The position numbers and the translations under genes were made by a program. Positions 5,701-42,588 of a stretch of 64,000 nt of DNA are shown here, piece by piece. Within the stretch, counting starts at the first letter, position 1. Each line of letters opens with the position of its first letter. The notes under the pieces were generated by a model. That model did not search any database and was not told the DNA's origin. It saw only the letters and a list, made by a program, of their open reading frames with translations. Origin of the DNA: Nanobdellota archaeon (GTDB lineage Archaea > Nanobdellota > Nanobdellia > Pacearchaeales > GW2011-AR1); assembly GCA_038045945.1 (NCBI GenBank), contig JBBSXC010000003.1:1-64000 (forward strand), read 5' to 3'.

Positions 5701-5816
5701 AATATTCCTGTTCTAATGGAAAACCTACTTACAAAATTTATGATTGTGCAACAGGAAACACAAAATACAGAAGATGTGGAGTAATCCAAGACAGAATTGG
5801 AGCAGTTTGCATATAA
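2769..5816 (+). CDS. M9-family (microbial collagenase-like) zinc metallopeptidase, membrane-anchored, with C-terminal Cys-rich module
   Basis: NGGIYIE, GTFYTYQRT, LEELLRHEYAHYL (HExxH), WFDEGLAEF; N-terminal TM. Confidence 0.9.
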   Translation: MVKRSVKKVKEEHFSKLETCLIIILVLMLLTIIYFKIYNDPLLLSPKGDSKSALTKSKIIEPQGPINKYSNSVEHGKQQENYKTPLAVMPQGSQGDSGTRTDTTTCNVQSMSNLDENNFVNYLKSHDYNCLYFLWFLNSDSDFQKIYSSNNIVAVAKEIGSLSNSYDGTNKGNMLELIFFIRTAYYYRFYQKPVGITEDVHNEVIVGLKAISKNPHLFDVNDYSENTLWEFIMTVDNAWLGHLYVPQIKKALLDFTTDSSRAERFYQRNIIYSIFYLISREMNAQAVTNSDLVKNFDKDIIGLINDIATKDYLIKNQAWLADNAIWALGNIASNKEFNKVSIDYLSKLLTIYPRLDEQYLWTVKVLDYFNGCKTSNPKIKLCMKDVMPEVELKIFTNTYSLEDNSLIIKTPLDSKTIQTLYNAINQVKSQFNRITNTITPIKDDPNSVLMMKVYGTRRDYEIYQPLLYGLPTANGGIYIEQQGTFYTYQRTTQESIYSLEELLRHEYAHYLVSRWLIPGMWGENAIYNNNRMVWFDEGLAEFLAWSTQLEIKTRKLLVEQIYGESGVDKQTGAIISYSDRMTIKDILSSSYGDFKFYRYSGMFWNYLYLNKPEILKQLLDYAHNSNLNSFDSLINQLKADSNLESNYQKFLDEQIAKLETLDNPHTDNLEVSTLNANDPKTIEPLFRKTRVGQYAKCSLASQGENSRFSCRGVLTTTQMAQKDYSVAWKEFNSNANEMITDLISKKELNNFNFMNCRFGQIVFNEYEGKFYALSNYFCDGPLAKNNLKLNDQQSQVSLDFKDTRVGAYSNCDYGSTDTSIICTLTLTTQPYDIGYDESLMEKRVSDDLIELQNEVYSIRPSYYRDFFCAFSGNSKIQTFKLDGNDKKYLLRNANCNVQFKGWSDHPLGAVRADSRTPSDPVVSEVKCIPPTGTNTCVDTDDGVNYIIPGTVCGYSNKKVYTANDYCITGGTSGQNLVEYSCSNGKPTYKIYDCATGNTKYRRCGVIQDRIGAVCI

Positions 5817-26872: not shown

Positions 26873-27311
26873 GAAAACAATAACATCAGAAGAAATATTA
26901 GGTAAGGATGTCATAGACATTGACGGAAGCAATATCGGTGTTGTTGAAAAAGTACTAATTGACCCTAAAAGTCTGGATTTTGTAGGCATATCAATAGATA
27001 AAGGGTTTCTTAAAAGAGGATTAACGCTTGGGGAAAACTACATTGACCAAGTAACAGACCACGCAGTCCTACTAAAAATTCGTGTTGCTTACGAAGTAAA
27101 AGGAAAAAACGTTTTTGATAAAGATGGAAAAATAATAGGGATTGTTACATCAATTGATCTTGAAGGAGAAAAAAACATTATCTCAAGCATTAACGTAAAA
27201 TCAGGATTCTTAACAGTTGGAAAAGAATTAAGCATCCCTGCAGGATACATAAAAGCAATAGGAGAAGGAGTAATGCTAACAATAAAAAAAGAAGAAATAA
27301 AGAAAGAATAA
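26835..27311 (+). CDS. tandem PRC-barrel protein
   Basis: LGKDVID.DG..IG.V and GK.VFDKDGK.IG.V repeats. Confidence 0.85.
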   Translation: MMNQKSISGKAIEKTITSEEILGKDVIDIDGSNIGVVEKVLIDPKSLDFVGISIDKGFLKRGLTLGENYIDQVTDHAVLLKIRVAYEVKGKNVFDKDGKIIGIVTSIDLEGEKNIISSINVKSGFLTVGKELSIPAGYIKAIGEGVMLTIKKEEIKKE

Positions 27312-27313
27312 AA

Positions 27314-27562
27314 CTATTTGTAAGCGTTCTTTCTATGTTTAACACTTAAAATTAATACCACTAATTTGTCATGATAAAGGTCAAGCATCAATCTATAATT
27401 TCCAATTCTTAATTTATATCCTGATTCGCCCACTAGTTTTTCTAAGAAATGTTCTGGTCTTATTTTTATTCTTTCTAAACCTGAACTAATTTGCTCTTGG
27501 GCAGTTTTATCTAATTTGAAAAATTGTCTTTCTGCATTCTGGGAGAATTCTATCTTATACAT
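27314..27562 (-). CDS. relE: RelE/ParE family toxin
   Basis: YKIEFS..A, YKLRIGNYR, V.HRKNAY. Confidence 0.9.
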   Translation of the reverse strand: MYKIEFSQNAERQFFKLDKTAQEQISSGLERIKIRPEHFLEKLVGESGYKLRIGNYRLMLDLYHDKLVVLILSVKHRKNAYK

Positions 27563-27779
27563 TCAGCTTTAATTCCTTCTTAATATCTTCAAAATTACGG
27601 AATTTACCCTCTTTATACTGTTTCCTTGACAGTTCCATCTCTCTTTTTACTTCATCCGATAATTCCATTCTATCTTCTAACAAATCCCAAATTAGGTTTT
27701 CATAACTTTCTTTAGAATGTATTTTCATACTTTTGAGCTTAGCGAGCAGCTCATTACTTATCTGTATGGTTGTATCCAT
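27555..27779 (-). CDS. RHH-type antitoxin
   Basis: MDTTIQIS..L...L..MK....ESYE..I; overlaps the relE start. Confidence 0.85.
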   Translation of the reverse strand: MDTTIQISNELLAKLKSMKIHSKESYENLIWDLLEDRMELSDEVKREMELSRKQYKEGKFRNFEDIKKELKLNV

Positions 27780-27862
27780 ATTAAGTATATAACTAGCTAT
27801 AGTATATAAACTTTTCTTAATATTAAAGTTTTTTCGTTAAGCTTTTAAACCGCCTTTTTCTC

Positions 27863-28252
27863 ATGATTTTCCTTATGAATAATCATTATGATGCAGTTAG
27901 AGCAGGTGCACAAGCATTAGCTAATGCTCTTGAAGGCATTACTGATTTTAGAGGGGTTTCTGACAGATTCTTCTTAAAACGCATCAATGACCGTGAAATT
28001 AATGCTACTACTCTTTATGGCGGTCCCTCTACTGACGCACACCTTTCTCATTCTAGCGGCAAATTATCATTAACTATTCCTCAATTTAGGGATCCTATTA
28101 TTGATGTTCACTTACCTGCTGACCACTTTGAAGTACCTGAAGGTTACGAAGTTGTTGGAAGAAACGGAACATTACACCTAAGAACAACTGCTAAGTCTAT
28201 AGAAGCACTACAAGAAGAAATAAGAAAAATAACAAGAATAAGAAGAGATTAA
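27863..28252 (+). CDS. hypothetical protein
   Basis: 129-aa ORF convergent with the cargo operon. Confidence 0.6.
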   Translation: MIFLMNNHYDAVRAGAQALANALEGITDFRGVSDRFFLKRINDREINATTLYGGPSTDAHLSHSSGKLSLTIPQFRDPIIDVHLPADHFEVPEGYEVVGRNGTLHLRTTAKSIEALQEEIRKITRIRRD

Positions 28253-28830
28253 TCCCTCACCCTATCTTCTGTATTAATCTCATAACTAGCATGTGGTAAG
28301 TGATACACTGGACTACTTGTTGAAAGTCTTAATGCTAACTCAATATCGTATCCGCTTTTCTTCAAGTCTTCACGATTTGGGGGCATTTGCTCGACCAATT
28401 CTCTAATACTCCTAACTGTTCTAACCTTAACGATGTTACATAAAGAACTACTACAGTCTCCCCTATAAGAAAATAATGCAACTTCTCCACCATACCGATA
28501 AACCTCTACGTATCGATCATCAATTCCCTGCTGAAAAACAAAGTTATCCTTATCAGTCTGATTATAAACAATTATTTCTTTTGAGTGAGGACCCCTAAAA
28601 AGGATTAGCTCATTGTTATCTAAAAAAATACTCATCTTAGGATTACTTTCCTTAACTGCCTCAAATCTAGTCGGGCCTGTAAAAAACATCATACCTTGGC
28701 CTTCCAAAGTCTTATTCATCCTTATAGCAAAAATATCCAAGGGCCTTACTGAAGAACAATCCATCGCTTCACTAACATCATAACCTCGAGAACTAAGATC
28801 TTCTAGCGGTGAAGGGATTGAAGTAGTCAT
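28249..28830 (-). CDS. hypothetical protein (last gene of the coupled cargo array)
   Basis: GGAGG SD with ATGA overlap; starts MTTS. Confidence 0.75.
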   Translation of the reverse strand: MTTSIPSPLEDLSSRGYDVSEAMDCSSVRPLDIFAIRMNKTLEGQGMMFFTGPTRFEAVKESNPKMSIFLDNNELILFRGPHSKEIIVYNQTDKDNFVFQQGIDDRYVEVYRYGGEVALFSYRGDCSSSLCNIVKVRTVRSIRELVEQMPPNREDLKKSGYDIELALRLSTSSPVYHLPHASYEINTEDRVRD

Positions 28831-29327
28831 TCTATCCTCCTTGTCAACCTAACCAGTTGGGAATCAATTATCTCCATCGTTTTTATATTGCTCATTGGCA
28901 TAGTCCTCATTCTAGAATGCTGAAAATCCAATGACGGAGCAAAAGCCCCCTTGCCTAGAACTTGGGAATCACTAATTACTAAACTTTCATCATTATGACT
29001 TCTATAGAACCCTGCTGCTCTAACATCATTATATATGTGTTCAGCATCCCAAGAGAGTGTTCCATAATATTGTACTAACAATAAGTCTCCCTCATTAACC
29101 TTTGATAAAACTAATCTGGGCTTATACTTTTCTGATTCTAATTCGTCCTGAACTTTCCAATCATTCAGGCCGTAAGCATGCATCTTCTCCCACAAATTCT
29201 TCCTTGATAAGCCTAGAACCGCTGCTGCTTCAGCTTTACGACCTTTAGTAAAAACTAAAGTATCCTTAATTGCTCTCTTTTCAACTTCGCGAACATAATC
29301 AGAAAGAGAACGAGGAAGAAAAGTCAT
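28827..29327 (-). CDS. Fis-type HTH (NtrC/bEBP C-terminal-like) fused to a domain paralogous to 30132..30482
   Basis: SLSDYVREVEKRAIKDTLVFTKGRKAEAAAVLGLSRKNLWEKMHAYGL; C-terminal EGD...Y...GFYR. Confidence 0.8.
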   Translation of the reverse strand: MTFLPRSLSDYVREVEKRAIKDTLVFTKGRKAEAAAVLGLSRKNLWEKMHAYGLNDWKVQDELESEKYKPRLVLSKVNEGDLLLVQYYGTLSWDAEHIYNDVRAAGFYRSHNDESLVISDSQVLGKGAFAPSLDFQHSRMRTMPMSNIKTMEIIDSQLVRLTRRIE

Positions 29328-29734
29328 TTTGTCTCTCCAGATTTTGATCTATCAATAATTTTTCTCAGAATATCCCTTACGTTATATGTCTCTCTTGAAA
29401 TATGTGCATCATTCATTCTTTTCCCAATTCTACCAAAGAGAGAACTAATCTTCTTTCTGTCATCTTCACTTATATCTTTATGAAATTCCACTGAAGGGTC
29501 ATACTTCAAATCCTCATTTAATGGGATGGCATAATTATCAAAACCTAAGCCGTAACCTAATGGTGACTCGTTGTAGTATCTAGTAACATAAAAATTTAAA
29601 CCACTAACCCTTGAAAAAAGCCTATCTTTACCAAGGCTGAGAGTCTGTGGAGAAGTATGAAACTTTAACCAAAAATCAGTAGGAATCTTATCAACAAATT
29701 CAATAACGTCATCAAGGGAAATATTAGAAGTCAT
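29324..29734 (-). CDS. hypothetical protein (array family A)
   Basis: SD+ATGA junction; DKIP...W and LF.RI pattern shared with 29731 and 30479. Confidence 0.75.
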   Translation of the reverse strand: MTSNISLDDVIEFVDKIPTDFWLKFHTSPQTLSLGKDRLFSRVSGLNFYVTRYYNESPLGYGLGFDNYAIPLNEDLKYDPSVEFHKDISEDDRKKISSLFGRIGKRMNDAHISRETYNVRDILRKIIDRSKSGETK

Positions 29735-30135
29735 TTTGAGTCCTCCACGAATCTTTCTAAATCGGACATTATAGCTTCACGATCAGACCATTCTTCTGTT
29801 GTGATGCTCTTATCAGTTTCTAATTTTTTATAAAGTCTGTTTAATCTATCATTTATTCCTTGAACCTGTCCATCAGGGCTTCCACAATCTGCAGAATCTG
29901 CTTCAATGGTTTGTAATACATCCAAAAAATCCGTATGAACTATTTCGATTGTTTTTTCTTTTGCTAACAGGTCTTTCCCTTCCATTTCAACATACCTATG
30001 ATATATTTTAGCTCTAAATTTGTCATTAAGCTTAGCAACATAAACTCCCATCCCATAATTTACTCTTCTCCATTCCTGAACTGGAATAGAATCAAGCTTA
30101 TCTAACAACTTATACAAAAATTCGTAAGAAGTCAT
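29731..30135 (-). CDS. hypothetical protein (array family A)
   Basis: SD+ATGA junction; DSIP...W, LY.KL; ends EDSK. Confidence 0.75.
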   Translation of the reverse strand: MTSYEFLYKLLDKLDSIPVQEWRRVNYGMGVYVAKLNDKFRAKIYHRYVEMEGKDLLAKEKTIEIVHTDFLDVLQTIEADSADCGSPDGQVQGINDRLNRLYKKLETDKSITTEEWSDREAIMSDLERFVEDSK

Positions 30136-30482
30136 TTTCCACTCCTAAGATATCTTCTACCGCCTTCTTCACAAGCGTCACCTAACTCCTTCTCAATATC
30201 CTCTCTTCCTTTAATCTTTGTTATGTTAAGAACCCAATCAGTAAGAACTTGTTTAGAATTGCTACTATCTCTAAGTCCTGGATAAGATGTCCTTTTAACA
30301 GGGCTTTCATGAATATAGAATGAACTATTCCCTTCCCTATAAGGCCTATAAAAACCAACACTTATTTCAACACCAACTACTTTTCCTTCAATAATAGGAA
30401 AAGCATAAAGAGCCCTAACCTCGTCACCCTCAACCAAACCATCAAGAGTTTTCAAAACCTCATCCTTAGACTGAAAAGTCAT
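30132..30482 (-). CDS. hypothetical protein (array family B)
   Basis: EGD.V...Y...VGFYR; SD+ATGA junction. Confidence 0.75.
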   Translation of the reverse strand: MTFQSKDEVLKTLDGLVEGDEVRALYAFPIIEGKVVGVEISVGFYRPYREGNSSFYIHESPVKRTSYPGLRDSSNSKQVLTDWVLNITKIKGREDIEKELGDACEEGGRRYLRSGK

Positions 30483-30883
30483 TTTGAGTCCTCCAAGATA
30501 TCAAGTTTAGATAAGGATCTTTCTTTTTTTCTTAATGCTTGGATTTCACGTGTCTTTTCTTTGATTTTATCTTTAGACTCTTTTTTCCTTTCTAATTCTC
30601 GATATTTATGATTAATCTTTCTATAAAGATTTAAAAATTTATTATTGCTAAAACCAACAATATCCTCATTAATACTTTCATCGTCTAAAGTTGCTTCAAA
30701 TTTGTCACAATATAACCCATAAGACAACATTCTTACTTTTAAATTATTTATTTTAATTTCATACTCATAAGAATAAGGTCCTGCGGTTTCCTTAACCTGA
30801 TCAGTAAGCAATATCTTGCTTGCAGGTACTTCAAGCAACTTTCCCGCCAACTTATCAAAACTAACCTTTCTAAAAGAAGTCAT
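30479..30883 (-). CDS. hypothetical protein (array family A)
   Basis: EVP, LYRKI, coiled tail; ends EDSK. Confidence 0.75.
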   Translation of the reverse strand: MTSFRKVSFDKLAGKLLEVPASKILLTDQVKETAGPYSYEYEIKINNLKVRMLSYGLYCDKFEATLDDESINEDIVGFSNNKFLNLYRKINHKYRELERKKESKDKIKEKTREIQALRKKERSLSKLDILEDSK

Positions 30884-31293
30884 TTCTCTTCCTCCTTAAC
30901 ATATTTTCCTTTGGCAAAATCAACATACCTAAATTCTATTAATCCGCGATTAACTTTAGAATAAACCTCAACACCGGCAACTAATAATTCATCATTACAT
31001 GTAAGTTTTTCATAAAAATCTTTTATAGAATCTAAACCTTCCAGTTTAGGAATCTGAACACGAACATAAGAATGCACTGGGATGTATAAACCGGCATTAT
31101 TGATAACAAATGTAGGTCTTGAATTTTCATTAAGGCAAGCTTCAAGTTTAAAAGTTGTCCTATTATCAACAACCCATTCTCTACCAAAAGCAAAGTGGGG
31201 AGAAGACTGAACTTCGCAAGAATAAACCCCACCTTCAACAACAAAATATTCTAAATCCTTTTTGTTAGGAACAAAATTACTAGGAAACATCAT
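30880..31293 (-). CDS. hypothetical protein
   Basis: GAGG SD with ATGA overlap. Confidence 0.7.
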   Translation of the reverse strand: MMFPSNFVPNKKDLEYFVVEGGVYSCEVQSSPHFAFGREWVVDNRTTFKLEACLNENSRPTFVINNAGLYIPVHSYVRVQIPKLEGLDSIKDFYEKLTCNDELLVAGVEVYSKVNRGLIEFRYVDFAKGKYVKEEEK

Positions 31294-31793
31294 TTTCTTT
31301 CAACCTCATATTTTCTTCTAGCTTGGGAACCTTTAAACATACCATAAAGTCCACCCATAGCTGAACCCATCCCTAAAAGAACAGAACTTAATCTTATGGC
31401 TTCATAAGGTAATTTTTGTTCATCAAAAGCTTTCATTTCTCCTTGATAATTTTGGTAAGCATCAGTGCTTGATAATCTTTCAAGTTCGCTATCAGCATAA
31501 GATAATGATTCATCAATACCTCTAGAAACCCCCTCGTAAAAGACTGATTTTCTTTTAGTCCTAAAACCTCTAGTGTCTCTTTCTTCTAACTGATTCTTAA
31601 TCTCTAATATTTCATTCTTAGCTTCATTAGTAACATCATAAAGAAAAACTTCAGTAGGCTCAATAGGCTTTTCATCATCTAAATAACTCAAAGCAGGACT
31701 AGAAACGCCCAGACCAATGGCGCTCAAAACTATTCCTGCTAAAGAATTACGAGTAATAGTTTTAGGATGAAGATCCATATTATCTAAAATCAC
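31290..31793 (-). CDS. 2-TM protein with helical loop (similar to 37902..38432)
   Basis: TM-helical region-TM architecture. Confidence 0.7.
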   Translation of the reverse strand: MILDNMDLHPKTITRNSLAGIVLSAIGLGVSSPALSYLDDEKPIEPTEVFLYDVTNEAKNEILEIKNQLEERDTRGFRTKRKSVFYEGVSRGIDESLSYADSELERLSSTDAYQNYQGEMKAFDEQKLPYEAIRLSSVLLGMGSAMGGLYGMFKGSQARRKYEVERK

Positions 31794-32220
31794 CCCTTAA
31801 GAGCATCTCAAGCATTTGTATAGTTACTCTTTCATCATTCAAAGCACGACCGCCTAAAGAAACAACATGGTTCCTAGCTCCACTAACTCCTGAGTTTAGA
31901 ACAAATTTATCTTTGGGAACTCTTGACATTATATAATAATAACCATCGTTTAGTCCATCGCAAAAATAAATATCTGCCTGAAGAATTTCATGAGTTAAAA
32001 TGTCTCTGTCATCTATAGCATGGATCCTCTTTGGGTCGTACTTGCTATCTCTAACATCTTCATCAAATTCTGCCTTAAAATCATCCCAAGATTCTAAGCC
32101 ATCAAAAGAAGTCTTAACGATTATTGCTCTAGTCTCTGGAATAGTAATTAATTCGCCATACCTAGAAGAGAAATCACTAAAAGAATCCTCATAAATAACA
32201 ATTTTAGGAGAAGAAGTCAT
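31780..32220 (-). CDS. atypical receiver (REC)-like protein
   Basis: KIVIYED, ADIYFCDG, VLNSG. Confidence 0.6.
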   Translation of the reverse strand: MTSSPKIVIYEDSFSDFSSRYGELITIPETRAIIVKTSFDGLESWDDFKAEFDEDVRDSKYDPKRIHAIDDRDILTHEILQADIYFCDGLNDGYYYIMSRVPKDKFVLNSGVSGARNHVVSLGGRALNDERVTIQMLEMLLRGDFR

Positions 32221-32630
32221 ATTTTTTCTCCCCTAAGTAATTTTTCTAGAAATCCTTGTGTTATCTCGATTCCTGAGTATGCTCTAACATTCTTTTTTTC
32301 AGCTAAGTATCGTATATCGTTATCTCCGGTGTTAAGAACTAATTTTTTATTATCGATCCTATCCATTAATGTTAATGCTTTTCCAACAAGTCCATCAGAA
32401 AAATAAATATCCGCTTGTTGGATATCATGAGAGTTTACTTCCTCGCGGCTAAGGGGATTAAAAGTTGTTAGTGGATAATTTGCTTCAACAAATCTTCTAA
32501 CCTTTGCAGGATCATCTAAGAATTCAACAAAGAAAACATTTACAGGCATAACTTTAAGAATTTCACCATAACGATCTCTCAATGAAGGCCATTCGTCTTC
32601 ATAAATAACAATTTTTGGAGAAGAAGTCAT
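32217..32630 (-). CDS. atypical receiver (REC)-like protein, paralog of 31780..32220
   Basis: KIVIYED, ADIYFSDG, VLNTG. Confidence 0.6.
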   Translation of the reverse strand: MTSSPKIVIYEDEWPSLRDRYGEILKVMPVNVFFVEFLDDPAKVRRFVEANYPLTTFNPLSREEVNSHDIQQADIYFSDGLVGKALTLMDRIDNKKLVLNTGDNDIRYLAEKKNVRAYSGIEITQGFLEKLLRGEKI

Positions 32631-32632
32631 AA

Positions 32633-33133
32633 CTAATCTTTCCTCCTTTCGTAAGAAGACTCAATACCTAATTTGTGTCTGACCTGAGAAACAACACGCC
32701 TACCAACATCATAGCCAAGTGAAGCAAGATAAGAAGCAATATCCCTATCACTAAAAGGAGCATTACTATCCTCGCTATCAATGTAAGATTTAACTTCATC
32801 AAAGACGTATTGGGGAATCTTGTTTCTTTCTCTCTCACTACTAGCTAATATTTCAGCATTCTTAACAACATCCTCAATACTACAAGAAATAGGAGGAGAA
32901 AGACGAAGATTTTGAAGAAAACCTGTATAGGGTTTACCACCACTACCGCCCAATAAATCAAGTTGCAACTTAGAGCGATCATAAACATTAGATCTATCAT
33001 AAACTTTAGGAAGATCAGCACCACGAGAATAATTAGACTTAGCACTAGGAGGCGGAGATGGGCTCTTATAACCGGGTCTGCCAGGAATATTCAACCTTTT
33101 CTTACGACCGCGAAACTTACCAGGCTTAGCCAT
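32633..33133 (-). CDS. stand-alone sigma-54 C-terminal RpoN-box HTH protein
   Basis: VKSYIDSEDSNAPFSDRDIASYLASLGYDVGRRVVSQVRHKLGIESSYERR resembles the RpoN pattern ED...PLSD..I...L...G..IARRTVAKYR..L.I.SS..R. Confidence 0.8.
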   Translation of the reverse strand: MAKPGKFRGRKKRLNIPGRPGYKSPSPPPSAKSNYSRGADLPKVYDRSNVYDRSKLQLDLLGGSGGKPYTGFLQNLRLSPPISCSIEDVVKNAEILASSERERNKIPQYVFDEVKSYIDSEDSNAPFSDRDIASYLASLGYDVGRRVVSQVRHKLGIESSYERRKD

Positions 33134-33135
33134 GA

Positions 33136-34434
33136 CTAACTATACCCCCTAGAACTTTTCTCAAAAGATTTCTTAGCCCTCTGGTATAATACTGAATTGC
33201 CAAATTCTCCATCAAGAAATCTTTCCTCACGAGGATCATGCAAAGGAGTACCCTTACTCAACTCAACAAACGCAAGTCTTTGATAAGGAGTATCACAAGA
33301 TTCACGCATCTCAGAAAGATGTTTGTGTTTCCCAGAAAGCTTGAACATAGCTGAGTGATAATGAAAATCACTCCAATAAAATTCGCCATCAGAAACATCC
33401 GATTTACTAAAAGAAGAAAGAATCTTAAAAATTTTTCTTCTACCAAATACTTTAGCAAGAGGCTGAGCATGATCAATATAGAAAGCCGCAAGCTTCATAG
33501 CAGAAGAATCAGAAAACATGTGAGAAGCACTAACAAAGAGACATTCAGCTTTCAAAGGATCACTCTTAACAAGTAATTCGGCCTGATCAGCAACAGCTCT
33601 GGCTAGAGCGGGATAATGATAAAGAGCATCACCCAGATGAGACTGGACACCGGTTAAATGAAACATGGTGTGATGGAAAGAAGAATCGCCGCCACCAATC
33701 CTCTTGAAAGCCTCAATACTTTTAATATAAGAATCATCATCAAAAGAAGCTTCAGCAATAAAAGAACTAAGAAGGTGAAGAGACCTGTTATCAGGCCAAA
33801 GAGTAAGACCCTTATCAGTCAATTCTCTAGCCTTGCCAAGATGGCCATCATGAGTAGCATCAGAAGCAATACTCTGAATAACGCAACTAAGACCTTGAGA
33901 GTAAGAAATCCTAACTTCTCTTTCACATTTAGAAGGCTCCCAATCAGCAGCAGTACACTCGATTGGAAAACGATCAACATCAAGAATCATGTGTTCAAGA
34001 GAAGCATACTTACCTAGAGGAGACTTCTTTTGACTAGTAGCAAGCTCAAAATGACCCATTTCGCCTTCAACTTCAACATCAGAACAAGCATCCTTAACGC
34101 CAGTTTGACACCTAAAACCAGCGCTGTAACCCTTGAGATACATGATACTCGCAATTAAGAAAGGAAGACCAACACAGTTCCCACCCTTGCGAGAAAGAAC
34201 ATCTTGAGGCCTGAAAGTTTCAGGAACGTATACAAAACCACTTCTTCTAAGGTCTCTCTTAATATCAAGAGCAGCGACTTTAGGATCAGAATCAACACTA
34301 ATAGAATCAGCAAGAAATTTCATTTCTCTAAGAGTCCTATCATCCGCACCACAAACCTCTAAGTAAGAAGAAACTTCAGCACTAGTCCTATCTCCTTGAA
34401 GTGCAGTTAGTGGTAAATCTAAAACATCAGTCAT
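33136..34434 (-). CDS. transglutaminase-like (SirB1-type) protein with TPR-like helical region
   Basis: VLSRKGGNCVGLP.L, EHMIL, IECT, followed by helical repeats (GLTLWPDN). Confidence 0.7.
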   Translation of the reverse strand: MTDVLDLPLTALQGDRTSAEVSSYLEVCGADDRTLREMKFLADSISVDSDPKVAALDIKRDLRRSGFVYVPETFRPQDVLSRKGGNCVGLPFLIASIMYLKGYSAGFRCQTGVKDACSDVEVEGEMGHFELATSQKKSPLGKYASLEHMILDVDRFPIECTAADWEPSKCEREVRISYSQGLSCVIQSIASDATHDGHLGKARELTDKGLTLWPDNRSLHLLSSFIAEASFDDDSYIKSIEAFKRIGGGDSSFHHTMFHLTGVQSHLGDALYHYPALARAVADQAELLVKSDPLKAECLFVSASHMFSDSSAMKLAAFYIDHAQPLAKVFGRRKIFKILSSFSKSDVSDGEFYWSDFHYHSAMFKLSGKHKHLSEMRESCDTPYQRLAFVELSKGTPLHDPREERFLDGEFGNSVLYQRAKKSFEKSSRGYS

Positions 34435-34555
34435 ATTTCATACTCCATTATTAACTTAGGAGTAGTGAATACGCTTGTAATATCTAACTGATATTAATGA
34501 TATGACTGATATTAAAAAGCGAAAGAGTTAAAAATAGCAAAATCTAGTAGTTTTT
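34435..34555. promoter_or_regulatory. divergent promoter/operator between cargo operon 1 and the AbrB-PhoU regulator
   Basis: ACTGATATTA direct repeat x2; TACTCC/GGAGTA hairpin overlapping the SD; TATA-like TTAAAAA. Confidence 0.5.
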
Positions 34556-35473
34556 ATGGAAGAAAGGAAATTAATTAAGCAAGGTGGAGGTGGATTGACT
34601 ATTTACCTGCCTAAGAAGTGGGTTGACAGAAGGGGGCTGAAGAACGGGGACAATGTTAGAGTCCTAGAAACAGACACCTCCCTAATAATTGAGGGTGACA
34701 TTAATACCAAGAATGAAATAAAAATTGATATTAACGAATCAAACATTCACGACTTAAGACACCTGCTTACTCATGCTTACCGTAGGGGTTTTAGCAAAAT
34801 AATCATTAGTTATAACAAGCCGCAAGAAATAATTAAAGAAACAAAAAAAGTAACTAGTAACGTGCTTTTAGGATTCGAAGTAACAAGCATTGAACAAAAA
34901 AGCATCATTATAGAAAACATTTCTGAACCTAGTGAAGAAAAATTTGATGTAATGCTCCAAAAAGTATTCTTAGTAATATCAGAAACTAATGAAGTATTAT
35001 TAAAAGATTTTACTAACGGGAAGTTTTCCAGCATTGACGAAATTAAAGAATTAAGAGACCAAGGTGACAAATTCATAATATTCTGCAAAAGACTCATCAC
35101 TAAGAACAGAAATGATAAAAACAGCCTCCTTGAATGGGAATTCATGACATTCCTTATGGACATCCACCACAATTACTATTATTTGTACCACTACGCTCAT
35201 GATAACAAAATTAAGACTAACAAGAACTTCTCTCAATTAATAAAAGACTTAGGACTATACTTTAGTGATTTAAGAAGCGCTTACCTGAAGAGGGATGTAT
35301 CAATAGTTCACAGAATTAATGAACAAAAAAAGAAATATCACTTTGGTGAAATAATTAAGCTATTAGAAAAATCGCGAGGGGAAGAAAACATTATCTATTC
35401 ATACATTAGAGAAATATTTCGTTCAATCCAATTATCAACTAGTCCTATAATGTCAATGAGTTTGGGATACTAA
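34556..35473 (+). CDS. AbrB-PhoU family archaeal regulator
   Basis: RKLIKQGGGGLTIYLPKKWV...L..GD.V, AY..GF..I, LLGFEV, helical PhoU-like region. Confidence 0.88.
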   Translation: MEERKLIKQGGGGLTIYLPKKWVDRRGLKNGDNVRVLETDTSLIIEGDINTKNEIKIDINESNIHDLRHLLTHAYRRGFSKIIISYNKPQEIIKETKKVTSNVLLGFEVTSIEQKSIIIENISEPSEEKFDVMLQKVFLVISETNEVLLKDFTNGKFSSIDEIKELRDQGDKFIIFCKRLITKNRNDKNSLLEWEFMTFLMDIHHNYYYLYHYAHDNKIKTNKNFSQLIKDLGLYFSDLRSAYLKRDVSIVHRINEQKKKYHFGEIIKLLEKSRGEENIIYSYIREIFRSIQLSTSPIMSMSLGY

Positions 35474-35485
35474 ATTATTTGTTTC

Positions 35486-37045
35486 TTAATCTTTCTCTCT
35501 TCTTTCTTTTATCACTCTATCAGCAGTTCCTTCTCCCTGTTCCTTGTCAAGACTTTGTTTAGCGTCATAAAGATTTTTTGCTAATTCCCATCTGTCATGA
35601 ACTCTATCGCCGGAAGTATGAAATTGTGGTCTCATCCAGTTATCAACATAGTTATATGTTATTTGAAGAACTTTACTCTCGATATCATCTGGGTCCTTTC
35701 CTTCTGCTGACATTTCAAGTAGTTTGGTTTTTACGCTTTCATAATCTGTTCTTCCTCCAGCTCTAACTACTGCTTCATAAGTTACGTCTGGGTTTAGATA
35801 AGCTGCAATTGCCGTTTTTTCATCACCTAATTTTTCAACCCACGCTCTAAAATCATAAGCTTCAGTTATTTCTCCTGCACCTAAATTCAATGCTTCAGCA
35901 TCTAAGACTTTTTTGCCTTGAAGTGCAACACGAATGATTTTTTCTTTACGCTCATAACTCAAATCTTTTTTATTTGAGTCTACTTTTTGAGCAAGACTAT
36001 CCTTCTCTTGATTCAATGAAGTTACCTCGTTACGAATAGCAGCAAATCCTAAAGCTACAGCAGTCAAAGCACCATTTATCAAGAACCATCTCTTAGCCCG
36101 TGCACGAGGCTTTGATGATTCATACCTCTTCATTGCTTTACTAAATTCTTCTTCAAGTGATTCTCCATCCTTGTATCTATCTGATGGGTCATAAGCTAAA
36201 CACTTCCTCAAAAACGGTCTTAGAGGTTTAGGAATGTTTGATAATGAATCTTCAATCATACCTTTATATTCCTGAAGACCAATATTTCTCATTGATTCAA
36301 TTGGATCTTTAGAATTTTCTAACCTTTTTTCTGTAGGGTACTTACCACTAAGCAGCTTGACTGCTAGAGAACCAACTGACCAAACATCTGACTGAGTTGT
36401 TGGGTGAGAATTATCAGCAAATACTTCTGGAGCTCTGATAGCTACATGACCAATATTGTCTCTTGGGCTCTCACTCCAATCTTCTGGACTAACTGTTGTA
36501 GCAGTACCTGTATCGGCAATAACTAATCTTGTTCGACTACTGCCAGCCGGATCATAAGACATTATGTTATCAGAATTTAAGTCTCCATGAACTCTAGAGA
36601 AATCTGTGTGTAACTCCTTTACTCCATGAACTATGTCCTCTAGCCCTAAAAGGATGGTTTCTGTTCTCTTGCTTCCTTTAAGGTAATGGTTCCAGTATTC
36701 TTCCCAATTCCTTAGAGTACTATGACATTGAGGCATCCAAATAAATGGTTTACCATCAAGGTCTTTGAATGGAACTGATGGAAGAACGTTACGTGCTGGA
36801 GCAAATCTTGATTCTCTAATTAAGACATCAGTCTCATTAATGTTTCTATGAACTCTTTGCTTTTTAGCAATTTCTGATGGAGAAAAAACCTTTATTGCCC
36901 CGTGCTGACCACTAATAACATCAAAAGCAGCATAGACTGCTCCATTACTTCCTCTCCCCAACTCTTGATAATTAACAAATCTGTCAGAACGAATAACATC
37001 CTCATGACCATCACTCCTCTTAGGGATACTACTACTAGAACTCAT
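35486..37045 (-). CDS. membrane-spanning Hanks-type Ser/Thr protein kinase
   Basis: LGRGSNGAVY, AIKVF, HGDLNSDN, ADTG, RAPE, SDVWS, DP..RY, then a TM helix. Confidence 0.9.
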   Translation of the reverse strand: MSSSSSIPKRSDGHEDVIRSDRFVNYQELGRGSNGAVYAAFDVISGQHGAIKVFSPSEIAKKQRVHRNINETDVLIRESRFAPARNVLPSVPFKDLDGKPFIWMPQCHSTLRNWEEYWNHYLKGSKRTETILLGLEDIVHGVKELHTDFSRVHGDLNSDNIMSYDPAGSSRTRLVIADTGTATTVSPEDWSESPRDNIGHVAIRAPEVFADNSHPTTQSDVWSVGSLAVKLLSGKYPTEKRLENSKDPIESMRNIGLQEYKGMIEDSLSNIPKPLRPFLRKCLAYDPSDRYKDGESLEEEFSKAMKRYESSKPRARAKRWFLINGALTAVALGFAAIRNEVTSLNQEKDSLAQKVDSNKKDLSYERKEKIIRVALQGKKVLDAEALNLGAGEITEAYDFRAWVEKLGDEKTAIAAYLNPDVTYEAVVRAGGRTDYESVKTKLLEMSAEGKDPDDIESKVLQITYNYVDNWMRPQFHTSGDRVHDRWELAKNLYDAKQSLDKEQGEGTADRVIKERREKD

Positions 37046-37200
37046 TCTAAAACCTCCACTATTGGTTCATCAATAATATCAATAGAAAGCCTAACTATGG
37101 TGCCTGGTTTAAGTTTTCCCTCAATTGATCGAGGAATAACAATTATAGATTGAGAACCATGCTTAGCAATACGCTTAGTAAGAGAAAATTTCTTAGTCAT
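37042..37200 (-). CDS. small AbrB-like (swapped-hairpin) protein
   Basis: TKRIAKHGSQSIIVIPR....LKPG..V.LSID; ATG at 37200; ATGA overlap with the kinase. Confidence 0.8.
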   Translation of the reverse strand: MTKKFSLTKRIAKHGSQSIIVIPRSIEGKLKPGTIVRLSIDIIDEPIVEVLE

Positions 37201-37317
37201 TTTATGTATAAAATACATAAAGAAAAAGACTATATAAAGCTTACGAAGTAGTGTAACTAACAAGTGGTAATAATGTCTAGAAAAAGCCTTAAATATAAGT
37301 AATCCCTAAAGATTACT

Positions 37318-37554
37318 ATGAAGACTATTACTATAAAGCTTCCTGAGAGAGAAGCTGAAGAGCTTGAATTATTTGTTAAGTCTAGCGGTTATCCTTCGAA
37401 ATCGGAATTTATTAGACACTTAATAGTTGGTAAGATGGGTTTAGAAAGAAAAGAAAAGCTCGGATGGATGATGCTTGGCCAAAAAGCTTTAGCTAAAAGA
37501 TGGAATAATCCTAAAGATGATAAGGTATGGAGCAGTTATATAAAAAATGATTAA
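37318..37554 (+). CDS. CopG/RHH antitoxin
   Basis: ITIKLP...GYPSKSEFIR; W....DD.VW tail; GTAATC/GATTAC palindrome just upstream. Confidence 0.85.
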   Translation: MKTITIKLPEREAEELELFVKSSGYPSKSEFIRHLIVGKMGLERKEKLGWMMLGQKALAKRWNNPKDDKVWSSYIKND

Positions 37555-37888
37555 TCAAGGAGACTTATTATTGGCGCCTTTTCCCTTTTCAGATCAGTCT
37601 GGAAGAAAAGTAAGGCCTGTAATTGTTATTAGTAATGACAAATATAACTCTCATCATGATGATATAGTTGCAGTTGGTGTAACGTCTAACGTTTTCAAAA
37701 ATCCATACTACATTGATTTCACCAATGCTGACTTAGACTTTGGTAATCTAGTAACTGTTTGCTCAATAATGGCTGATAGTCTAACACTGCTTGATAAAGA
37801 ATTGATTACTAAAAGAATCGGTAAAGTTAACAAGAACAAAATGAAAACAGTTTTTGATAAAGTTGTTGAAATAATAAAAACTAAATAA
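37547..37888 (+). CDS. mazF: MazF/PemK family toxin
   Basis: GDL.L.PFPFSD....KVRP.IVISN, VTSN, IGK. Confidence 0.92.
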   Translation: MINQGDLLLAPFPFSDQSGRKVRPVIVISNDKYNSHHDDIVAVGVTSNVFKNPYYIDFTNADLDFGNLVTVCSIMADSLTLLDKELITKRIGKVNKNKMKTVFDKVVEIIKTK

Positions 37889-37901
37889 ATTTAGTCATCT
37901 T

Positions 37902-38432
37902 TTAATGATCCCACTCGCCTTTTGATTCCTGAGTGGGTTTTTCTTTTATTATTTCTCTGAATCTTATTGCTCCTTCATCATAAATTGCTGATTCTCTTCT
38001 TTCAGCAATCTTATAGCTTGCATAACCTAGTAAAGTTAAAGCACCAAATGTTCCCATTAACGCTTGATGTAGGGGATTATTATCATGTTCTCTTCTATCA
38101 TTTTTATAAGTAATTACTGATTCTTCTTTAGAAGAAAGATTTATCTCTTGGTCTAATTTCTTTATGGTTTCATCAAATTTGGCTGCTAATGGTTCTTGAT
38201 AAATCTTTAATTCTTCTCTAACATTATTCGTTCCTAAAGACCAAAGCTGACTTTGAAGACCATTTCTATAATTAACCAACAATCGATAATGATCATAACC
38301 CATGGTTTTAGGCCTGTCAGGGCCTCCAAATACCCAAAAACCAAGACTAGAAGCTAAACCTAATGATGAAAGAGCAAAAGTAAGACTAGAACAACGCTTA
38401 ATTCTCTTAACAGAATCTAACCGAGAAGTCAT
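37902..38432 (-). CDS. 2-TM protein with helical loop (similar to 31290..31793)
   Basis: MTS start with ATGA overlap; TM-helical region-TM. Confidence 0.7.
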   Translation of the reverse strand: MTSRLDSVKRIKRCSSLTFALSSLGLASSLGFWVFGGPDRPKTMGYDHYRLLVNYRNGLQSQLWSLGTNNVREELKIYQEPLAAKFDETIKKLDQEINLSSKEESVITYKNDRREHDNNPLHQALMGTFGALTLLGYASYKIAERRESAIYDEGAIRFREIIKEKPTQESKGEWDH

Positions 38433-38746
38433 TTCTTTTTCCTCTCACTCAAAAAAGAGTTAATTGCCTTAGACAAGTCTGGTTTGTGTGAATCTCTGCT
38501 TCTTAATGACTCATAATAATTATCATAAGAAGAAGTGTTACTTCTATAACTTCCACCCCACTCAAATAATCGCCAATTATCATTATCAACAACAACCAAG
38601 TCGGATCTGCCATCGCCATTAAAATCTAAAGAATAAACTTCGCGAGGATCATAATCAGAAGAATTATTGCCCAGAACGAAACCAGCAGATAAAACGCCTA
38701 AAGCACAAGCAGCAAATCCCATCTTTCTTAAATTTTCATCAGACAT
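38429..38746 (-). CDS. small anchored protein with FG-GAP-like Ca-binding motif
   Basis: N-terminal hydrophobic helix; DFNGDGRSDLVV. Confidence 0.7.
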   Translation of the reverse strand: MSDENLRKMGFAACALGVLSAGFVLGNNSSDYDPREVYSLDFNGDGRSDLVVVDNDNWRLFEWGGSYRSNTSSYDNYYESLRSRDSHKPDLSKAINSFLSERKKK

Positions 38747-38760
38747 TTTTCTTTTCTCCT

Positions 38761-40002
38761 TTACTTAAAATTATAAGTTAAGCCAAGCATACCTGAATAA
38801 GAATTTTTACCTTCTACAGGCATAGCAGCACGAAGGGCGAAGTCTAAACTAAGACTCTTATCAGCATTAGTGTAAATTTTAGCTCTTAAATCAGCATTAT
38901 TAACACTCAAACTCTTATCATTAAGATCAGAATGCCTACCAACTTGTAAAACAACATCCTTAATCCATGAATCACTAACGCTACCTAAACCAACAGCAAC
39001 ATCGGAGTTAAAGTATCTGCTTGAAGGTTCATCATGATACTTAACGTCAAAACTAATGCTGCCTAAATTACCACTATTGCTAGCTGAAGCACCAAAGAAA
39101 TCAATTCTAGAGTCGCCATCACCGATGCCGAAAGGGAAAGTAGCATCACCATCTCCACCAAGGAATGGAGTAATGGAGTTGAAAAGAGTGTCCTGAGTAC
39201 CAACAAGGAAAGCACCACCTGGAGCCTTCTTACCAAAACGAACCCTAGCCTCAAAACCCTTATTTTGGCCTTGAACAGTATCAAAAACTTTAGCTTGAGT
39301 GAGAACTTTGTAACCGTCTATAGCACTATTAGCATCAGACCACTTGTAAGAGAAAGCAGTGTTAAAAGTATCAGAATCATTAACTCTATGACCGCCAATA
39401 CCAAAATCAATCTTATTATCATTAAATACTAAAGCATAACCAAAATTACCATCGCTATCAGCAGTAACCTGAGGTTTAAACTTATCAACATTAAAACCGA
39501 TAGCACTAGCAAGTCGGTTCTCAAAAGGTTTAGCATTATCCTGGAATTCAAAATTAAGGAAGTCAAGAGTACTATCTTTGAATGATTTCTCAAGCATAAG
39601 GCGACCATTATCCAAAGATGAATCTAAGAAAGACTGATAACCCGCATTAAAGCGAACACCAGTATTAGACTCAGACTTACCAAAAGTTAAGTCAGCACCA
39701 TAAATATTAGATCCGTTCTCGCCACGATAAGCAACCTTACCTAAATCACTAGAAAGAATCTGGTGAGTTTGCAAACCACCATGACCATCAGCATAAGCTC
39801 TAGAAGTCAAAACTACAGAATCAACAGCCCTTTCTAAGTCAGACTTAGCTGGAGCATTATCTCCGGCTAGAGCACTAGCTCCAAGAGCATAAGGCATCAA
39901 GGCAGCAGTTAAAGCTGCAACATTAGCCATTTTCCTTATACTTTTTCTTATTGTTTGTTTCATTGTATTTTTATCCATCATCTTATGGTCTGTCGTAACC
40001 AC
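38761..40002 (-). CDS. signal-peptide protein with beta-barrel-like amphipathic strands
   Basis: Basic N-region, hydrophobic core and ALA cleavage site; alternating strands; C-terminal YSGMLGLTYNFK. Confidence 0.6.
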   Translation of the reverse strand: MVTTDHKMMDKNTMKQTIRKSIRKMANVAALTAALMPYALGASALAGDNAPAKSDLERAVDSVVLTSRAYADGHGGLQTHQILSSDLGKVAYRGENGSNIYGADLTFGKSESNTGVRFNAGYQSFLDSSLDNGRLMLEKSFKDSTLDFLNFEFQDNAKPFENRLASAIGFNVDKFKPQVTADSDGNFGYALVFNDNKIDFGIGGHRVNDSDTFNTAFSYKWSDANSAIDGYKVLTQAKVFDTVQGQNKGFEARVRFGKKAPGGAFLVGTQDTLFNSITPFLGGDGDATFPFGIGDGDSRIDFFGASASNSGNLGSISFDVKYHDEPSSRYFNSDVAVGLGSVSDSWIKDVVLQVGRHSDLNDKSLSVNNADLRAKIYTNADKSLSLDFALRAAMPVEGKNSYSGMLGLTYNFK

Positions 40003-40998: not shown

Positions 40999-42588
40999 TT
41001 ATATGTCTTGATGGTAGTAAGCAAGCCAAGCATCAACAAACTTTCTCCCATCTTTATCTAAAAACTTTCTGTAAGACTTGTAATCATTACTATTAGATTT
41101 AGACTTTACTTCTCTTAATTTACCAATTCCGGATCTTGAGACTACCATCGTATCTTCAACGTCTACATTACCCTTACTATCTCGGCATTCTTCAATTGCC
41201 ACTTCTAGTGATGCAGCAATTGTTGGGAAAAAGGGGCCAAATGCTGGATCATTCTTATCAAAATCTTTATTGTTCAACTTGGCAAATAATCTTGATTGAT
41301 ACTCTGTTAATCTTTCGCCTCTAACATCTGAATTTGCTTGTGCGAAACTCTTAGCAAAATAAGCAACAATTTTATCCTTTGATGCTAACTTAGCGTACCT
41401 GTCAAAACCTTGTTGAATCATGCCATCAGCAGTTTCATAGTCTAAATATTCCTGGCTACTTTCTGAAACGAAAGATGTTTGTTTGCCTTCAAAAATCTCA
41501 TCTTTTGGTTGATAAAGCATTCCCCTAACTTCTTGATCTGATAATTGTCTTCTTTCTGGAATTAATGAAGAAGCATAAATGCCAAAACCTATTAGTCCGC
41601 CAAGCCCTAATGCTCCTAAACCAAACCTTCTAGTATACTTTTTGAATTCATTCATTACGTGAGACTTATCAAGTGTTCTTTCTAAGTTTTCTTTAAGGTC
41701 TGTACCGTTGCTAAACCTTTTATTTTCATCAATATTAAGTCCTTTTGAAAAGAACTTTCTTATCCTTCTGTCACTAATTTTCTCTTTAATTCTTCTATCT
41801 ATGAATTCTTGTATAGCCTCTTTACTTGAACTCTTTATCTCATCATAACTTAAACCCTCTAGGGGGTATTCCCCAGTTTTTAACTTAAACATTAATGCTG
41901 TAGCACTATAGGTGTCTGTTCTCTTTGTAGGGTGACTCCCTTCATTAAAAAGTTCTGGGGCTCTAGTTAAAAACCATCCGATATTATCTCTTGGGGACTG
42001 AGTCATTCCCATACCTTCAACCGTTGATGCACCAAAATCATTAAGTAACAATCGTCCCTCTAAATTAATGGCAAAATTTCCCGGATGACCATCACCATGG
42101 ACTCTGTTTAGTCCTGCCTTTGAGTGAACTTCGCTATATGCCGTTGCAATATCCCTCACATAATGATCAAAATGGGGTTCTACCTTCTCCTCCCATGATG
42201 AAGGATTATAAGGATTATCTTTTGCTATAACCTCTAACATTTTATCTAAAAACATGTCGTAAGGGGGCATTACAATGAATCTTCTACCATTCTTATCGAC
42301 TTCAAATCTTGTTGGAACAACTCTTGAACAAGCAGAAAGCTGAACAGCCTCATTATCCATTGCTTTATTCTCATCAAGATTTCTCTTAGGCATCTTACCT
42401 AAAGCTTCATCCGTTGGAGCAAAAACTTTTATTGCAACATCCTGGCCCGTTATTCTGTCTTTACCCTTATAAACAATACCCCAAGAGCCCATACCGTAAA
42501 TCTCTGCAGGATCAAAAGAATACCTATAAGAATCAATGATCCCAGGGTTCCCCCTTCTAGAGACAAAAGAATTATCCGTTTCAGTCAT
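40999..42588 (-). CDS. membrane-spanning Hanks-type Ser/Thr protein kinase (paralog of 35486..37045)
   Basis: GMGSWGIVY, VAIKVF, HGDGHPGN, NDFG, SPRDNIG, RAPE, then a TM helix. Confidence 0.9.
   Translation of the reverse strand: MTETDNSFVSRRGNPGIIDSYRYSFDPAEIYGMGSWGIVYKGKDRITGQDVAIKVFAPTDEALGKMPKRNLDENKAMDNEAVQLSACSRVVPTRFEVDKNGRRFIVMPPYDMFLDKMLEVIAKDNPYNPSSWEEKVEPHFDHYVRDIATAYSEVHSKAGLNRVHGDGHPGNFAINLEGRLLLNDFGASTVEGMGMTQSPRDNIGWFLTRAPELFNEGSHPTKRTDTYSATALMFKLKTGEYPLEGLSYDEIKSSSKEAIQEFIDRRIKEKISDRRIRKFFSKGLNIDENKRFSNGTDLKENLERTLDKSHVMNEFKKYTRRFGLGALGLGGLIGFGIYASSLIPERRQLSDQEVRGMLYQPKDEIFEGKQTSFVSESSQEYLDYETADGMIQQGFDRYAKLASKDKIVAYFAKSFAQANSDVRGERLTEYQSRLFAKLNNKDFDKNDPAFGPFFPTIAASLEVAIEECRDSKGNVDVEDTMVVSRSGIGKLREVKSKSNSNDYKSYRKFLDKDGRKFVDAWLAYYHQDI

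Follow-up and report, generated by a model that had tools for sequence, protein, structure and literature searches.

What does the promoter-reading domain of a bacterial sigma factor do when it stands alone in an archaeon? This question is raised by a small gene in the 64,000-nucleotide stretch of DNA analysed here (the window), which is part of contig JBBSXC010000003.1 of a Nanobdellota archaeon (GCA_038045945.1). The gene, referred to as the mini sigma-54 gene, lies at 32633-33133 on the minus strand (stop codon included) and encodes a protein of 166 amino acids (aa); the open reading frame (ORF) list contains it at exactly the position given in a first-pass annotation made from the sequence alone. 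That annotation had described the C-terminal ~55 aa as RpoN-like and the N terminus as basic, Pro-rich and free of a core-binding region, and had proposed that the protein is either a captured bacterial helix-turn-helix (HTH) domain reused by the archaeon or a decoy acting on a bacterial partner. Here, we confirm that the small protein is a stand-alone sigma-54 RpoN-domain protein and report that its gene is paired with a gene for a large transglutaminase-like protein. With a probability of roughly 0.45, we favor the reading that a remnant of a bacterial sigma-54 has been reused as a DNA-binding regulator, and that the large partner protein binds or processes its N-terminal motif.

A stand-alone RpoN domain in an archaeal genome

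Pfam Sigma54_DBD (PF04552) matches residues 104-165 of the small protein with an E value of 1.8e-10 and a score of 41.2 bits, well above the curated cut-off of 22.8 bits. The match spans only positions 99-160 of the 160 profile positions and, thus, covers the RpoN domain alone (32639-32824, minus strand). A profile of the 26-member short family described below matched the solved Aquifex RpoN domains with E values of 7.6e-17 (2ahq_A) and 8.2e-17 (2o8k_A). In the AlphaFold2 (AF2) model, residues 1-80 have no secondary structure and are predicted to be disordered, while a helix at residues 86-103 is followed by four short helices, with a predicted local distance difference test (pLDDT) score >90 over residues ~110-166. 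The recognition helix of this domain reads GRRVVSQVR and is followed by LGIESSYERR. Using this model in a Foldseek search of the PDB, we obtained sigma-54 chains in all of the top 25 rows. The model superposes with a root mean square deviation (rmsd) of 1.7 Å over 51 columns and 45% identity on 2o8k, which, according to its title, is a structure of the RpoN domain alone in complex with the −24 element, and with an rmsd of 0.8 Å over 54 columns on 9msf_M. The first-pass annotation had proposed a Sigma54_DBD search and a structure prediction against RpoN structures as checks, and both bear out the RpoN assignment.

The remainder of sigma-54 is not present in the small protein. Sigma54_CBD (PF04963), the core-binding domain (CBD), was not detected by Pfam at E ≤ 1. 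The extra-long-helix HTH (ELH-HTH) part of the DNA-binding domain (DBD), which binds the −12 element, is also absent, in that the Pfam match starts at position 99 of 160 and the AF2 model adds a single helix (residues 86-103). For the NCBIfam rpoN equivalog, the protein reaches 37 bits where 277 bits are required, and therefore the protein has a sigma-54 domain but is not a sigma-54. Residues 1-54 (32972-33133, minus strand) form a basic, Pro-rich tail that is predicted to be disordered and is shared only with the closest relatives (P0002 and, in part, P0004, P0019, and P0029). The description of the N terminus in the first-pass annotation is, thus, in agreement with sequence, AF2 model and Pfam.

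Sigma-54 is otherwise bacterial, and according to an excerpt of PMC12316311, archaea lack sigma factors. Both points would fit an artefact, i.e., a bacterial fragment that was mis-assembled or mis-binned, or a decaying pseudogene of a transferred rpoN gene. We regard this explanation as extremely unlikely, and it is already contradicted by several observations. The gene lies 32 kb inside a contig of 506 kb that also encodes TBP, in a genome of 847 kb in 7 contigs with 93% completeness. The window has a GC content of 31-37% throughout and carries genes for aIF2-gamma (GTP_EFTU and eIF2_C; 1075-2307) and Kae1 (11757-12770), so that the archaeal context assumed in the first-pass annotation is well founded. 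Four groundwater-metagenome runs from one study contain the stretch, and in the Logan assemblies of two runs, single contigs of 44 kb span positions 27000-39000 with 0 differences, although this support is not fully independent because the runs may be the source samples. The bacterial chimera that the first-pass annotation had considered as a threat to its own interpretation is, therefore, not what the contigs crossing this region show. Stronger support against a chimera than that from the Logan contigs comes from orthologous copies: the gene and its partner occur as pairs in five further archaeal genomes of four other genera, amid archaeal genes. Finally, the frame is intact, the motifs are kept, and the ratio of nonsynonymous to synonymous substitution rates (dN/dS) is 0.28.

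We also searched the genome for other parts of a sigma-54 system. Sigma54_CBD was found nowhere in a whole-genome search that did give matches in control genomes. For Sigma54_activat, there were two weak matches only (E values of 1e-3 and 8e-3), both in long AAA+ ORFs. This search was unspecific, as it was positive in 14 of 14 control genomes, archaea included, and it revealed no convincing cognate AAA+ enhancer-binding activator in the genome.

A short protein family and its N-terminal motif

In an exhaustive HMMER search of 1.84 billion representatives, 79 proteins matched at E ≤ 1e-3. These fall into three groups, i.e., full-length or fragmentary bacterial sigma-54 proteins, proteins with 2-7 RpoN domains in tandem, and a rare family of ~25 short proteins (98-176 aa), most of whose length can be aligned with the window protein. 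The closest relative is P0002, with 51% identity over residues 3-165. For the analyses described here, we aligned 26 short-family sequences (alignment A1), all of which match Sigma54_DBD. Searches with a single sequence, either the small protein or the partner, returned only the query, while alignment A1 gave nine clusters of one or two members. Among the loci read from a search with a closer alignment (A3), most were full-length bacterial sigma-54 genes (L005 and L008-L011), and one was a true family locus (L012). In three scans of viral contigs, no relative of the small protein or the partner was found.

The short proteins share an N-terminal block with the consensus eQRLvMTPPIAxSvEEvvxNA. 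In the window protein, this conserved family motif is encoded at 32855-32971 on the minus strand (aa 55-93: KLQLDLLGGSGGKPYTGFLQNLRLSPPISCSIEDVVKNA), and its end starts the helix at residues 86-103. The PP pair is kept in 25 of the 26 A1 members and Q74 in 17. Within the RpoN domain, R152 and R163 are invariant in all 26 members, and LGI is conserved. The bacterial sequences compared have the canonical RpoN box ARRTVAKYR, from which the recognition helix of the window protein deviates; the family consensus is xRRDVAxAR. Among the Arg residues of the box, the first is present in 20 of the 26 members, the second in 13, and the last, as the only invariant one, in all. Asp replaces the canonical Thr in 20 members and Ala the canonical Tyr in 18.

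The tandem-RpoN proteins (P0003, P0006, P0007, P0008, P0011, P0017, P0021, P0024, P0028, and P0032) form a group of their own. Several have hydrophobic, signal-peptide-like N termini, and some have extra C-terminal repeats; they may constitute a multivalent DNA-binding family.

The first-pass annotation had also stated that the small protein has no activator-interacting region. In agreement with this, Pfam Sigma54_AID (PF00309) matches none of the 26 A1 members and did not match this gene in the genome scan. Nevertheless, the conserved residues ~73-93 bear a weak likeness to the beginning of Region I, the activator-interacting N terminus of sigma-54, and this part of the claim has to be qualified. 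The pattern [MLI][EQ]QRL[VI]MTP, taken from five family members, retrieves full-length bacterial sigma-54 genes (L005 and L008-L011 were checked), the N termini of which read ...LQQRLVMTPALQMAIKLLQL, ...LQQRLVMTPKLQQAIKLLQM, and ...MQQRLIMTPQMQQSIQLLQL. Thus, (L/M)QQRL(V/I)MTP is carried by bacterial sigma-54 N termini as well as by some members of the short family. When the family N termini were aligned with 17 bacterial Region I sequences using hhalign, the QxLxL(S/T)P block was in register (P = 0.018 over 15 columns). With a hidden Markov model (HMM) of Region I, the 26 real N termini had a mean score of 1.83 bits compared to −1.90 bits for shuffled sequences; the highest mean among 100 shuffled sets was −0.76 bits, and 13 of the 26 real sequences scored above the 95th percentile. 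The scores reach at most 7 bits, and their significance is overstated because the members are related. Based on these data, we consider it somewhat probable that the N-terminal motif derives from Region I, in which case the small protein would be an internally deleted sigma-54.

The conserved gene pair

Immediately upstream of the mini sigma-54 gene, a gene at 33136-34434 on the minus strand encodes a 432-aa protein; 2 nt separate its stop codon from the start codon of the mini sigma-54 gene. To describe the distribution of the two genes, we used profiles of both proteins on 401 genomes of the same order (the order sample). The small-protein profile gave clear matches in the genome studied here (G000) and in G490, G673, G476, and G762 and a weaker match in G543, while the partner profile gave strong matches in precisely the same six genomes. 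Further weak matches were obtained in G726 and G408 with the small-protein profile and in G686 and G724 with the partner profile. In all six genomes, the pair lies side by side on one strand, and the large gene comes first. The distance between the genes is 2 nt in the window, 1 nt in G490, 20 nt in both G476 and G762, and 175 nt in G543. The G673 copy of the partner gene is spread over two contigs and borders directly on the small gene. The same pair is present on a metagenome contig of 1.7 kb (L012). As read by eye from the ORF lists, the flanks of the module vary between genomes and consist of archaeal housekeeping genes, e.g., PGK- and GAPDH-like genes in G490, IleRS- and aIF2-gamma-like genes in G476, and genes for ribosomal proteins in G762. 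In a high-quality sample of 401 genomes from the whole phylum, the family was detected in G000 only; weak profile matches in G101 and G117 of this sample lie in unrelated ORFs and were rejected.

We compared G476 and G762 for substitution rates. The small gene has the dN/dS of 0.28 mentioned above, the partner gene has a value of 0.13, and dS is near saturation. In this one pair of genomes, the module is under purifying selection. Neither the conserved N-terminal motif nor the obligate transglutaminase-like neighbor was noticed in the first-pass annotation, which had placed the mini sigma-54 gene in an operon. Nor did it notice that the other genes of the run are not kept with the pair elsewhere. 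These are ten further co-oriented and tightly packed small ORFs at 28249-32630 on the minus strand, downstream of the module and in this genome only. They have no match in Pfam, PHROGs, or PADLOC except for one HTH_8 domain, and they are not found beside the module in the other genomes. Because the rest of the minus-strand run is not conserved together with the mini sigma-54 gene elsewhere, the conserved unit consists of two genes.

The ten ORFs include two paralogs at 32217-32630 and 31780-32220 on the minus strand (137 and 146 aa), both of which start with MTSSPKIVIYED and have a common LLRG motif near the C terminus; searches of Pfam, PADLOC, PHROGs, and NCBIfam gave no family for either. 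The ORF at 28827-29327 on the minus strand encodes a 166-aa protein with an N-terminal Fis/NtrC-type HTH_8 domain (aa 12-52; E value of 4.5e-11), the only HTH_8 in the genome. The best NCBIfam matches of this protein are the C-terminal HTHs of the sigma-54-dependent activators DhaR, AtoC, PrdR, FlbD, and NtrC. With this protein in the same run as the RpoN-domain gene, the DNA-binding ends of both halves of the sigma-54 system are present here as stand-alone pieces.

The partner protein has two parts. In an alignment of four sequences (A4), GNC (Cys87), LEH (His148), and ExT (Glu159) are invariant, and the GNC, LEH, and ET residues are also visible in the partners of G543 and L012. The AF2 model of the partner (pLDDT of 77) places the Cys at the start of a helix (residues 89-100) and the His and Glu on strands (residues 148-153 and 156-158). 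By these predicted secondary-structure positions, the residues have the arrangement of the papain/transglutaminase fold. From residue 177 onward (~177-430), the model consists of helical repeats. The ESM Atlas neighbors of the partner are bacterial proteins that combine Transglut_core2 or Transglut_core with tetratricopeptide repeats (TPR), with similarities of 0.93-0.94 for features and structure TM values of 0.46-0.66. Using Foldseek, we obtained TPR proteins and menin, including the consensus TPR protein 8chy with an E value of 6e-4. In a VIA search, which is independent of Foldseek, menin (3re2_A) ranked first with a Z score of 13.4 and an rmsd of 5.5 Å over 299 residues within positions 8-352, and TPR chains followed at Z scores of 11-13, some with an rmsd of 1.1-3 Å over 67-98 residues. 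Of the top rows, only menin extends across the transglutaminase-like as well as the TPR part of the partner. Since helical repeat proteins can reach a Z score of 13.4 by chance, we use menin as an architectural analogy only. The partner has no match in NCBIfam, PADLOC, or PHROGs. A complex prediction for the pair (A4 with A1) scored 0.56 compared to 0.42 for a control in which chain 1 was replaced, and this result is no evidence either way.

The pattern of conservation within the family bears on the role of the RpoN domain. Conservation is higher in the N-terminal motif than in the RpoN box, as the PP pair is present in 25 of the 26 members and the second box Arg in 13. In addition, the small proteins of G476, G762, and G543 have lost the LGIxSSxxR end of the domain and retain the PPIA/PPIS motif and the partner. 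These observations speak for the importance of the motif in the favored reading and would also fit a model in which the small protein is a substrate or cofactor of a transglutaminase-like enzyme, without a role in DNA binding; the enzyme would cleave near the PP pair, or deamidate or cross-link at the conserved Gln (Q74 in 17 of 26 members), and the RpoN fold would be a decaying structural carrier. However, all 26 members still score with Sigma54_DBD, R152 and R163 are invariant, LGI is conserved, and the copy in the window is complete with a pLDDT >90. We judge the enzyme-substrate model to be unlikely.

The surroundings of the module bear on a further alternative. Around the run, the window has an accessory-looking island with a GC content slightly above the window mean (27314-27779, 34556-35473, 35486-37045, 37547-37888, and 40999-42588). 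Its genes encode a ParE-like toxin with a small upstream ORF, a 305-aa protein with an AbrB/MazE-like N terminus, a MazF/PemK toxin, and two Ser/Thr kinases, one of which matches the defense-system kinases mad6, PD-T4-6, and MkoA in PADLOC. The location in this island, with its ParE-like and MazF toxins and defense-type kinases, is one point for a toxin-antitoxin-like or conflict module. In such a module, the transglutaminase-like peptidase would be the harmful effector, and the small HTH protein would neutralize it and repress its own operon, like type II antitoxins, in which a disordered toxin-binding peptide is attached to a DNA-binding domain. The module consists of two tightly packed genes, is patchily distributed (found in 6 of the 401 order-sample genomes and 0 of 24 genomes of the same family in the high-quality phylum sample) and lies between unrelated genes in each genome; the small protein consists of a disordered conserved peptide and an HTH; and the catalytic triad of the partner is conserved. 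On the other hand, neither protein matches any PADLOC or PHROGs family, no relative of either was found in the scans of viral contigs, and a type II system would not usually have these protein sizes or a gene order with the large enzyme in front. On balance, a toxin-antitoxin function appears rather unlikely.

Outside the island, the window contains genes for a 1,015-aa M9 collagenase-like protein (2769-5816, plus strand; Peptidase_M9_N and Peptidase_M9) and for a eukaryote-type topoisomerase IB (18785-19840, minus strand).

Possible functions and comparison with known systems

In sigma-54, contact with the −24 element is made by the RpoN domain, and polymerase is bound mainly through the CBD, as described in an excerpt of PMC7057263. 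The small protein has neither a CBD nor the HTH for the −12 element and, therefore, cannot act as a sigma factor. Because an isolated RpoN domain is a self-sufficient DNA-binding HTH, the protein is most likely an ordinary sequence-specific regulator. In the favored reading, a bacterial sigma-54 would have been reduced to the first residues of Region I and the C-terminal RpoN domain. The resulting small protein would serve an archaeal host with TBP/TFB transcription as a plain regulator that binds DNA, at sites that probably differ from the bacterial −24 element. The 432-aa partner would bind the small protein at its disordered proline motif (LxLSPPIAxSxEE); by holding, cleaving, or modifying it, the partner would control the amount of free regulator. 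The reading builds on the observed domain identity, family, gene pairing, archaeal context, and purifying selection; from these, we infer DNA binding in vivo, target sites, physical contact of the small protein with the partner, and a catalytic activity of the latter. Regarding the first-pass proposal of a captured bacterial HTH reused by the archaeon, the conservation of the pair in six genomes and the dN/dS of 0.28 speak for the reuse, while the binding of DNA is the part that is inferred.

Several observations weigh against this reading. The recognition helix (GRRVVSQVR in the window protein and xRRDVAxAR in the family) differs from the canonical ARRTVAKYR. The last RpoN helix is missing in three of the six archaeal copies, and, consequently, DNA binding may not be the core function of the family. 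The likeness of the motif to Region I is weak by hhalign, by the HMM, and by the silence of Sigma54_AID, and the small protein of L012 has TPRV in place of TPPI. On the side of the partner, no Pfam transglutaminase or TPR family matches at E ≤ 1, and the resemblance to menin has the large rmsd and the chance-range Z score given above.

Upstream of the 12-gene run and before the partner gene, two 16-nt direct repeats that are 88% alike are present with 18-bp spacing at 34482-34515, and an inverted copy covers the start codon of the partner gene (34423-34436). The motif is not repeated elsewhere in the window beyond chance. The repeats are a candidate operator. Sites resembling the bacterial −24/−12 promoter (TGGCAC-N5-TTGC with ≤2 mismatches) are not enriched in the window, with 29 sites compared to 22.6 ± 4.9 expected.

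These sites are also relevant for the second proposal of the first-pass annotation, i.e., a decoy able to block sigma-54 promoters in a bacterial partner. Such a protein would be exported to, or act in, the partner cell, where its domain would occupy −24 elements or its Region I-like motif the activators. Two observations would suit a decoy. The promoter- and activator-touching ends of sigma-54 may both be retained, and the short-family RpoN profile scores the domains of bacterial sigma-54 proteins (median of 47 bits for 17 sequences, a set biased because it was chosen as matches to the small protein) far above those of the long archaeal forms described below (median of 2 bits, with 11 of 14 scoring at all). 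However, we found no evidence for a decoy. No signal peptide or secretion gene is evident beside the module in the six genomes, the box residues are non-canonical, with the helix departing at three positions in most members, and truncated copies persist in three of the six genomes. A decoy would also leave the partner gene unexplained. The chance-level number of promoter-like sites argues in the same direction, although the window is the archaeon's own DNA. We consider a decoy function very unlikely.

Compared to bacterial sigma-54, the small protein shares the fold of the RpoN domain (2AHQ and 2O8K; the C-terminal third of PF04552) with ~60 residues of homology and keeps the RR...R recognition pattern and the LGIxSSxxR tail. 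It differs in having no CBD and no ELH-HTH, at most a short remnant of Region I, and an altered box. Moreover, its host is an archaeon without a CBD and without a convincing activator, and its gene is paired with a transglutaminase-like/TPR gene. If the motif is truly from Region I, the protein represents a natural minimal construct for asking what the Region I peptide binds. A literature search, which did not cover supplementary tables, identified no description of sigma-54-derived proteins in archaea.

The PF04552 scan of the same 401 genomes of the order revealed a second archaeal form. Nine further genomes, all of the same family, each encode one protein of 270-330 aa that matches nearly the whole DBD (ELH-HTH and RpoN) and has a canonical ARRTV(S/T)KYR box. 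Six more genomes with a long form are from other families of the same class in the 381-genome phylum sample, giving an overall size range of 260-330 aa. The loci are L039-L047 and L049-L053, in G481, G548, G731, G672, G599, G631, G751, G499, G656, G224, G139, G180, G208, and G221. By Pfam, the proteins of the nine genomes have neither CBD nor AID; the N termini of the long forms align with bacterial Region I by hhalign at P = 1e-4 over 40 columns, with a probability of 57%. The 14 long forms group together by BLAST and have no conserved neighbor within ~1.5 kb; that of G481 lies among genes for a proteasome alpha subunit, Mre11/Rad50-type proteins, and pyruvate:ferredoxin oxidoreductase. Thus, the long forms are like the short form in being sigma-54-derived, in lacking the CBD, and in occurring in the same archaeal family and class, but they have the whole DBD, a canonical box, and no conserved neighbor. 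In the order sample, the short module is absent from the nine genomes with a long form, and no long form was found in the six genomes with the module. Because the short-family profile scores the long forms poorly, it is improbable that the short form arose recently from the long form. These results support that pieces of sigma-54 persist under selection in archaea in two forms, one long and CBD-less and the other minimal and locked to a partner.

A precedent for bacterial sigma-factor genes in archaea with small genomes is provided by the sigma-70-type genes of DPANN archaea, for which an excerpt of PMC8204110 leaves the control mechanism and role open. These genes belong to the sigma-70 family and are near full length, unlike the mini sigma-54, and sigma-54-derived genes are not mentioned in that excerpt. 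The genome studied here has two sigma-70-family ORFs, one on contig C5 (L056, 1354-2220) that encodes a 288-aa protein with regions 2 and 4 and one on contig C1 (L057, 1390-2193) that encodes a 267-aa protein with regions 2 and 3. A broader, and in our view doubtful, interpretation connects all these genes. Archaea with small genomes would have turned those parts of bacterial sigma factors that read DNA into regulators acting on TBP/TFB transcription, with the CBD-less long sigma-54 forms and the sigma-70-like genes of the lineage as stages of the same process. The locus described here would then be the most reduced case, in which only the two contact ends of sigma-54 (the Region I peptide and the −24-reading RpoN domain) are left, and the grip of AAA+ activators on the Region I peptide would have been taken over by a menin-like transglutaminase/TPR protein that replaces the activator. 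If true, this would be a new kind of transcription switch. Two soluble proteins and a candidate operator make up a small testable system for how a bacterial promoter-reading domain is rewired into another transcription apparatus.

For the partner, menin (3RE2) is the nearest comparison in overall architecture, i.e., a transglutaminase-like and TPR scaffold, and we do not claim homology (~9% identity, with the rmsd and Z score given above). Menin binds short peptides of MLL and JunD, and the PDB titles among the Foldseek rows agree with this. As a working analogy, a cavity in the partner might hold a proline-containing peptide that belongs to a DNA-binding protein. The two proteins differ at the catalytic position, where the transglutaminase-like domain of menin has Ser in place of the Cys according to an excerpt of PMC3495828, unlike the partner, which keeps Cys, His, and Glu. 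The clusters nearest to the partner in the ESM Atlas are the bacterial Transglut_core2 and TPR proteins (PF13369 architectures); unlike these, the partner has no Pfam match at E ≤ 1. The bacterial proteins are of the SirB1/YchA type. Their functions are, as far as we are aware, largely unknown, and we know of none that is linked with a sigma-54 fragment. The module could give a first function to this widespread, uncharacterized transglutaminase-like and TPR architecture.

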